From a virus (taxonomy: Duplodnaviria; Heunggongvirae; Uroviricota; Caudoviricetes), in IMG/VR virus record IMGVR_UViG_2703718827_000010, positions 1 to 34,304 of that record: a stretch of 34,304 nucleotides of DNA. One strand, given 5' to 3'. This document shows, piece by piece, positions 25,156-25,386 of this stretch. Under the pieces are notes generated by a model that searched no databases, was not told the origin of the DNA, and worked only from the letters and a program-made list of their open reading frames with translations. Within the stretch, counting starts at the first letter, position 1. Each line of letters opens with the position of its first letter. A program made the translations under genes and the position numbers.

Positions 25156-25386
25156 ATGCCTGAATTACTGCGTGAACTTAAGTGGTCCCCAGATGGTTGT
25201 ATTGTCGAATCCATTCCCGCTGGGGTGTATTCGGACGGTGAGCTACCTGCCCGCGCTGAGGAAATTGCTGCCGAACTTGGCATTATCAAATTTGGTAGTG
25301 GCGGTGTTCATGTTCCTGCAGAGCCAGAGCCAGAGCCAGAGCCAGAGCCAGAGCCTGCGGCAACCAAACGTGGGAAAGCCAAATGA
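25156..25386 (+). CDS. Small head-region protein with (Glu-Pro)6 linker
   Basis: 76-aa ORF containing the hexanucleotide tandem repeat; ATGA overlap with next gene. Confidence 0.5.
   Translation: MPELLRELKWSPDGCIVESIPAGVYSDGELPARAEEIAAELGIIKFGSGGVHVPAEPEPEPEPEPEPAATKRGKAK
25321..25356. repeat. Hexanucleotide tandem repeat (GAGCCA)x5 plus GAGCCT encoding EPEPEPEPEPEP
   Basis: Direct reading of the sequence. Confidence 0.9.

Follow-up and report, generated by a model that had tools for sequence, protein, structure and literature searches.

The stretch of DNA considered here (IMG/VR record IMGVR_UViG_2703718827_000010, positions 1 to 34,304; hereafter the window, which means all 34,304 nucleotides) is a lambdoid siphovirus prophage, and in its head module a small gene of 76 codons lies between that of the major capsid protein and that of a head-tail adaptor. 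A first-pass annotation had placed this open reading frame (ORF) between capsid and connector genes, had noticed in it an in-frame hexanucleotide tandem repeat that encodes (Glu-Pro)6, and had suggested that the copy number of the repeat may vary between isolates. The placement agrees with the Pfam matches on both sides (PF05065 upstream, PF05135 downstream), and the repeat is confirmed by reading the sequence, by Tandem Repeats Finder (TRF) and by frame arithmetic. Five GAGCCA copies occupy 25321-26, 25327-32, 25333-38, 25339-44 and 25345-50, and a GAGCCT copy closes the array at 25351-56; as (25321-25156)/3 = 55, they encode E56 to P67 of the product, which reads MPELL...VPA-EPEPEPEPEPEP-AATKRGKAK and can be divided into the segments MPELLRELKWSPDGCIVESIPAGVYSDGELPARAEEIAAELGIIKF-GSGGVHVPA-(EP)6-AATKRGKAK. 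The coordinates of all features are collected in Table 1.

TRF calls the array at 25319-25355 with period 6, 6.2 copies, 100% matches and a score of 74, and reports it as the sole period-6 array in the 34.3-kb window. Likewise, a pattern of four GAGCCN units with at most one mismatch occurs in the window at this array alone and in none of 100 dinucleotide-preserving shuffles, and both analyses therefore describe a run of at least three perfect head-to-tail copies beyond chance. Two further ORFs cross the array, an antisense one of 170 aa (25308-25820) and a +2-frame ORF that would read it as (SQ)n; both were dismissed, as they overlap plus-strand genes with Pfam or PHROG matches and have no support themselves.

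The small ORF is a real gene. Two PHROG profiles annotated as function unknown match its product, phrog_21989 along the entire length (E 1e-37) and phrog_1020 across residues 6-47 (E 2.5e-13), and orthologs hold the same genomic position in 81 loci, lying between the capsid gene and the head-completion side wherever both neighbours are present. These orthologs come from E. coli, Citrobacter, Serratia, Erwinia, Lonsdalea, Scandinavium, Symbiopectobacterium and IMG/VR contigs, while the phages carrying the gene include SfI, SfII, SfIV, ST64B (Sb7), YeP1-3 and several Klebsiella phages. Searched with the nucleotide sequence of the locus, the phage collection gave no match, and relatives there appear at the protein level alone. 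Motifs resembling a Shine-Dalgarno sequence precede the start codon in all lineages inspected. Furthermore, the N-terminal domain is under purifying selection, with 18 distinct close-clade sequences giving a pS of 0.143, a pN of 0.023 and a pN/pS of 0.164 (proportions of synonymous and nonsynonymous differences and their ratio). An AlphaFold2 (AF2) model built on a 24-sequence alignment is confident for residues 1-46, with a predicted local distance difference test (pLDDT) of about 87-91, and falls to a pLDDT of 50-60 over residues 47-76, in line with predicted disorder of the spacer. Within the domain W10, S11, P12, G14, I37 and A38 are invariant, and the net charge computed from the sequence is about -5 for the domain, -6 for the array and +4 for the tail.

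What the family conserves is this architecture: an N-terminal domain of 46 residues, a disordered, acidic and proline-rich spacer, and a C-terminal cluster of lysine and arginine. In a profile search of 1.84 billion protein representatives, the plan of N-domain, low-complexity spacer and terminal Lys/Arg cluster persists down to about 30% identity, with distant tails such as TKRGKTK, KKSKK, KKAKK, KKGKK and RRRNR, and with spacers rich in alanine and proline in members from what look like high-GC hosts. Pfam and NCBIfam searches with the small protein of the window returned no match, a Pfam search of 33 family members returned none above threshold, and comparison of the family with the PDB and with known folds gave none either. 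A small DNA-binding domain of the HeH, LEM or Rho_N type was considered and rejected, given the beta-beta-beta-alpha-beta topology of the AF2 model and the lack of Pfam matches in those 33 members; the BFVD (Foldseek) matches to LEM-like or LAP2-like proteins are non-significant (E 0.4-3), and an hhalign comparison with HeH/LEM covered 13 columns and was insignificant. The N-domain also contains an invariant WSPDG strand-turn motif (residues 10-14, 25183-25197). The long multi-stretch profile matches that it attracts are propeller proteins of the WD40 type (e.g. P0032), which have this motif alone in common with the family and which we rejected as relatives; they number in the hundreds and inflate the match counts for the small-protein family.

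The suggestion that copy number varies between isolates holds well. Our comparison of related prophages covered the set of 81 loci, many of which come from short-read metagenome or draft assemblies, and for the close clade 42 loci and 46 distinct database proteins, and invariance between relatives is clearly not what we see: the Glu-Pro run spans 1-19 copies in the close clade. Even among seven complete E. coli genomes, EC2001 and SZQ1 carry 7 units, ARL09/232 and ECONIH5 carry 6, and ET245, ET5 and ES5 have a degenerate 3-unit array (GAGTCA GATCCA GAGCCA). In the 46 database proteins, runs of 1 (13 proteins), 2 (14), 3 (3), 4 (4), 5 (7), 6 (3) and 7 (2) units are found, to which the IMG/VR loci add alleles of 8, 9, 10, 11, 12, 14 and 19 units. 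The 42 loci range from 2 to 19 units and always differ by whole units, and the resulting protein lengths of 68-102 aa are distributed flatly. Each of the C-tail haplotypes AATKRGKAK, AVTKRGKTK, PKTKRGKTK and EKTKRGKAK occurs with several copy numbers, and length changes must therefore recur independently. Moreover, the interior of the arrays is pure GAG CCA, with variant units (GAA CCA, GAG TCA and the GAG CCT of the window) at the 3' edge, which is the usual signature of slippage.

These changes are fast compared with point substitution. Between ECONIH5 and EC2001 we count 2 substitutions over about 1,300 nt and a difference of one 6-bp unit, and between loci L065 and L075 2 substitutions over 2,559 nt and a difference of one unit of a 9-bp array encoding Glu-Gln-Pro (EQP; 5 versus 6). 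L056 and L064 have 1 and 13 units, respectively, although their 1,335-nt upstream flanks are 4 substitutions apart. Protein length differs in 3/8 of the locus pairs with less than 0.2% divergence in the 1,335-nt flank, and in 15/15 of those at 0.2-0.5%, so that prophages whose flanks have diverged by about 0.1-0.2% can already be one unit apart. As near-identical flanks thus come with unequal arrays, the array must change no less often than a substitution arises in about 1 kb of flank. It should be noted that L065 and L075 are both from IMG genome 2695420335, i.e. a single host genome harbours two near-identical prophage head regions, a pair that is our nearest proxy for variation inside one population.

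The same site carries other in-frame arrays in related clades. Sister-clade arrays comprise GAGCAGCCA (EQP) in 2.3 to 13.3 copies, GAACAGCCG or GAACAACCG (EQP) in up to 13.4 copies, CAGCAGCCAGAG (QQPE) in 6 copies, and an array with an 18-bp unit encoding TDSPVV. Three of the units at the site fit the formula GAG(CAG)nCCA, with n being 0, 1 or 2, and the unit lengths of 6, 9, 12 and 18 bp are multiples of three in every clade. Other clades lack a repeat, the 89-aa type and ST64B/SfII, and their spacers are non-repetitive and rich in proline, glutamate and serine. The repeat-prone position of the spacer is family-wide, with a unit length that differs by clade. Despite the varying array lengths, the reading frame is intact in 80/81 loci, and units that are not a multiple of three, by which on/off phase variation would be recognised, do not occur. 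The sole frameshift, in L076 of a sister clade (IMGVR_UViG_2636415640_000003, 2992-3372), stems not from the 9-bp array itself but from an A8 run that lies immediately upstream of it and has lost 1 nt; in the new frame the array encodes (SSQ)12, and the protein ends without its basic tail. The same frameshift is present in protein P0092, hence in two data sets, and could be either a real inactivation, a switch at the homopolymer or a sequencing error. HK97 has no gene at the position of the small gene, and together with the frameshifted allele this makes the protein look dispensable.

How, then, would such an array evolve? We consider it likely that, as a whole, the array behaves as a coding microsatellite in a length-tolerant spacer that evolves by slippage and may serve its protein as a tether; for the repeat and the spacer taken by themselves our confidence is higher still. 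Slipped-strand mispairing during replication would add or remove whole 6-bp units, and each step would give one Glu-Pro more or less (about 0.6 nm if the chain is polyproline-II-like), changing the length of an acidic, non-globular spacer between the folded domain of 46 residues and the C-terminal Lys/Arg cluster. With a unit that is a multiple of three, such steps would not switch the gene on or off and would alter spacer length alone; with spacer length under weak constraint, alleles of 1 to 19 units could therefore coexist. The constrained features would then be both ends of the protein and the acidic, proline-rich character of the stretch that joins them.

A coding microsatellite in a length-tolerant spacer is a known class of behaviour. 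Loci with variable numbers of tandem repeats (VNTRs) that arise by slipped-strand mispairing serve in bacterial typing by multiple-locus VNTR analysis (MLVA), and coding loci of this kind, in bacteria and prophages alike, consist of perfect short head-to-tail units whose number changes by whole units between near-identical genomes. The array of the small gene resembles them in these respects, being polymorphic in whole units (1-19) among close relatives with conserved flanks, and pure inside while degenerate at its edge. It differs in that its unit is always a multiple of three, such that length changes come without on/off switching, and in that it resides in a head-module gene of a phage rather than in a surface adhesin or a restriction-modification gene. 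Our literature searches found nothing on the small-protein family or on its hypervariable spacer, recurrent and multi-unit as it is, and both appear to be undescribed.

For the physical nature of the spacer, TonB offers a comparison. The Glu-Pro stretches of TonB form polyproline-II helices that act as static rods (PMC10771500). By analogy, the spacer of the small protein is probably polyproline-II-like as well, whereas the AF2 model says 'not globular' and no more; (EP)6 would measure about 3.7 nm, and the natural alleles would span about 0.6-12 nm. This refines the view of the first-pass annotation, which had spoken of a flexible linker of changing length: the change in length stands, while 'flexible' is better replaced by an extended, rod-like spacer. 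In both proteins two functional ends are kept apart by an acidic spacer of Glu-Pro repeats, after which comes a basic segment, (Glu-Pro)n then (Lys-Pro)m in TonB. However, the two are not homologous. The window protein matches 0 Pfam families, and PF16031 (TonB_N) was hit by 1/33 family members at E 0.013, a match of compositional nature that does not make the family part of TonB_N. Furthermore, the basic part of the small protein is a cluster of 4-5 Lys/Arg residues and not a (KP)n rod, and the small protein is cytoplasmic with a hypervariable array, while TonB is a membrane-anchored energy transducer.

What the two ends might do is a more tentative matter. The protein may be a dispensable head accessory acting as a tether, in which the N-domain would dock on a conserved component of the head and the basic tip would touch a polyanion, for which DNA during packaging or head completion is the likeliest candidate. 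We put this tethering to DNA forward as a possibility, and one that is more doubtful than the behaviour of the repeat. In phage lambda, gpFI serves as a chaperone for packaging, forming a bridge between the capsid and the terminase-DNA complex, and it can be bypassed by suppressor mutations in the terminase or capsid genes (PMC13595911). The small gene likewise lies between the major capsid and head-completion genes, and by its sequence gpFI too has an acidic low-complexity linker joining two functional ends, although without a tandem repeat. Popovic et al. (2012) reportedly placed the folded head-binding domain of gpFI at its C-terminus, whereas that of the small protein is N-terminal. Membership of the gpFI family is rejected by an hhalign probability of 0.5% (E 0.11, 13 columns), and a fold search against PDB entries that included the C-terminal domain of gpFI (2LSM) gave no match. 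The tether would therefore resemble gpFI in logic and gene position, not in ancestry.

The collagen-like gp12 of SPP1, Hoc of T4 and pb10 of T5 are small dispensable head-module proteins as well, each combining a capsid-binding part with an extended part. The small protein may be comparable to them, and it differs in that its distal end is a short basic peptide instead of a folded domain; homology to auxiliary proteins of these types was not detected, and searches of the literature on virion proteomics and cryo-electron microscopy found nothing bearing on any member of the family. The main functional rival of the tether is a surface whisker or decoration, with the N-domain on the shell, the acidic rod pointing outward, the basic tip on polyanions of the cell surface or mucus, and a reach that copy number would tune. 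Such a whisker would be one example of a broader alternative, in which length variation itself is adaptive and the array is a contingency locus of the length type, with spacer lengths selected by host or condition.

The very fast turnover and the wide, flat allele spectrum would suit such a contingency locus, as would the fact that several clades have independently gained arrays at this site, built from different units. High mutability combined with weak constraint, however, yields the same pattern without selection, and whole clades, ST64B/SfII and the 89-aa type, do without a repeat. The small gene adjoins the capsid gene, and in both the window and ST64B capsids K169 of HK97 gp5 aligns to Arg and N356 to Phe, so that these capsids probably lack the chainmail cross-links of HK97, as judged from an alignment that is just 23% identical. 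With the cross-link residues apparently missing, an auxiliary shell protein in a decoration or cement role is plausible. Conversely, a domain of 46 aa is very small for a cement protein, and a terminator-like hairpin separates the small gene from the capsid gene. A GC-rich hairpin with a T-run is found directly 3' of the capsid gene in every lineage (the window, loci L008-L016 and IMG/VR loci), with stem sequences that differ in a compensating manner, and the HK97 record has a putative terminator annotated at the same spot, after gp5. In many lineages other than that of the window another hairpin of this kind follows the small gene immediately, so that the gene is bracketed there by two attenuator-like signals, an arrangement that suggests expression above that of the connector genes and in this respect favours an adaptive surface role.

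The pairing of the small gene with its neighbours argues against a protein bound to the capsid lattice as well. One capsid type (at least 95% identical) is combined with five N-domain types, which is unexpected for such a protein and indicates recombination joints in the short intergenic hairpin regions. Between the window and L014 of Citrobacter meridianamericanus, for instance, the capsid is 99% identical, the N-domain 64% and the adaptor 34%. Counted by cluster, N-domain types are shuffled against adaptor types too, and the binding partner can therefore not be inferred from co-inheritance; a linkage of the small protein to the adaptor, first hinted at by pairwise counts, was dropped for this reason. 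Within the clade of the window, the sequence arrangement indicates that the small gene is translationally coupled to the adaptor gene, its TGA overlapping the adaptor ATG (ATGA), with a gap of -4 in 35 loci. Taken together, we regard selection on spacer length as unlikely, and favour slippage in a tolerant spacer.

Going one step further, the spacer could be an evolvable 'length dial' that has itself been selected in a protein displayed on the capsid or acting there, the fast VNTR supplying each prophage population with variants of an acidic, basic-tipped polyproline-II rod that differ in reach, for example for adherence to polyanions of host surfaces or mucus, or the regular spacing of its carboxylates making it a DNA-mimicking decoy. 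The repeated, independent births of arrays would then reflect selection for evolvability and not mere tolerance, but we deem this improbable, and more so than selection on length as such.

That the copy-number differences are artefacts of sequencing or assembly, with a true array that is constant, we hold to be barely conceivable: many loci do derive from short reads or drafts, and the longest arrays, at about 114 bp, come near short-read length, yet the differences exist among the seven RefSeq complete genomes, all changes involve whole units with clean flanks, the same 19-unit allele was recovered from two separate metagenomes (L018 and L019), arrays of 12-54 bp lie well inside the read length, and alleles follow the tail haplotypes only partly, as real recurrent mutation would. 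Equally far-fetched is a non-coding cis element, such as a protein-binding or packaging-related site, in an ORF that is not a gene; the product is indeed small, without a known domain and unannotated in some phage records (SfIV, with 'none' under match), but against this stand the pN/pS of 0.16, the conservation of the ORF with its Shine-Dalgarno sequence in 81 loci and distant genera, units that are all multiples of 3 and that encode similar acidic, proline-containing peptides from different DNA, the confident fold of the N-domain, and 53 database representatives at E<=1e-10, a count inflated by unrelated WD40 proteins bearing WSPDG.

A hypermutable yet frame-preserving repeat evolving by slippage would make this locus a clean natural example within a structural module of a phage. 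Its dozens of natural alleles (1-19 EP units, 1-13 EQP units) form a ready linker-length series, and the conserved two-ended architecture marks two candidates for a functional part, the N-domain and the basic tip. The family is widespread in prophages of Enterobacterales, including SfI, SfII, SfIV, ST64B and Yersinia and Klebsiella phages. The locus can furthermore serve as a high-resolution marker separating prophages that are otherwise near-identical. Length variants of the protein fall into different 90% clusters, which is a warning for annotation and clustering.

Table 1. Features of the window discussed in the text, with their coordinates
Feature	Coordinates	Strand	Evidence
Coding microsatellite (GAGCCA)x5 + GAGCCT = (Glu-Pro)6, residues 56-67	25321..25356	+	Sequence read, TRF, shuffle control
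Small head-module gene, 76 aa, member of PHROG 21989 / 1020	25156..25386	+	ORF, PHROG matches, conserved position
Shine-Dalgarno-like GAGGTG, 4 nt ahead of ATG	25146..25151	+	Sequence read
Conserved N-terminal domain, residues 1-46, beta-beta-beta-alpha-beta	25156..25293	+	
Gly-rich hinge GSGGVHVPA, residues 47-55	25294..25320	+	Alignments; pLDDT drops here
C-terminal basic tail AATKRGKAK, net +4	25357..25383	+	K/R cluster across family
Terminator/attenuator-like hairpin GGGGC-TTCG-GCCCC + T-run, capsid stop to small gene	25123..25144	+	
Upstream neighbour: major capsid protein, HK97 fold, N-terminal delta domain	23909..25117	+	PF05065 Phage_capsid E 3.9e-79; HK97 gp5 alignment
gp6-like head-tail adaptor, downstream neighbour	25383..25703	+	PF05135 E 6.6e-12; phrog_40 adaptor Ad1 E 2.8e-29
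51-aa Cys-rich ORF	25712-25867		phrog_19728 E 3e-6
70-aa ORF	25773-25985		phrog_2612 E 6.5e-20
S78 prohead protease	23242-23895		
Portal	22026-23255		
HNH endonuclease	19069-19419		PF01844 E 2.4e-15
Replication gene with iteron-like repeats, Phg_2220_C	9651-10559		
CI-like repressor	7802-8461	-	
Integrase	1-1170		

The remainder of the window follows the lambdoid plan. The HNH endonuclease gene is followed by the genes for the small and large terminase subunits (TerS and TerL), the portal, the S78 prohead protease, the major capsid protein, the small protein and the adaptor, and downstream of these by those for a head completion protein, gp10-like and gp17 proteins, a lambda-like tail tube, a tail assembly chaperone and a tape measure protein. 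HK97 gp74 and its terminase are known to be arranged in this way, the HNH gene lying just upstream of TerS (PMC13595911). Between the adaptor and head-completion genes lie 283 bp (25704-25986) with two overlapping small ORFs in different frames, and as the head closure gene comes immediately after that of the adaptor in the E. coli relative L001, this segment looks like a small inserted cassette.

The early and lysis genes also include a MT-A70 methylase, holins, a GH19 endolysin and a DUF2514 protein, and a tRNA-Arg (anticodon TCT) is located on the minus strand at 6573-6649 in the early region. Within the replication gene, about 3.5-3.7 copies of a 23-bp unit (GTCAAAATGACC...) followed by three copies of a 12-bp unit extend over 9978-10151; these repeats look like origin iterons inside an initiator gene, as in lambda O. 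The DUF2514 gene (17217-17744) of the lysis cassette contains a second in-frame tandem repeat at 17464-17496, three copies of the 12-bp unit CTGCTGCCACTG with 75% matches.
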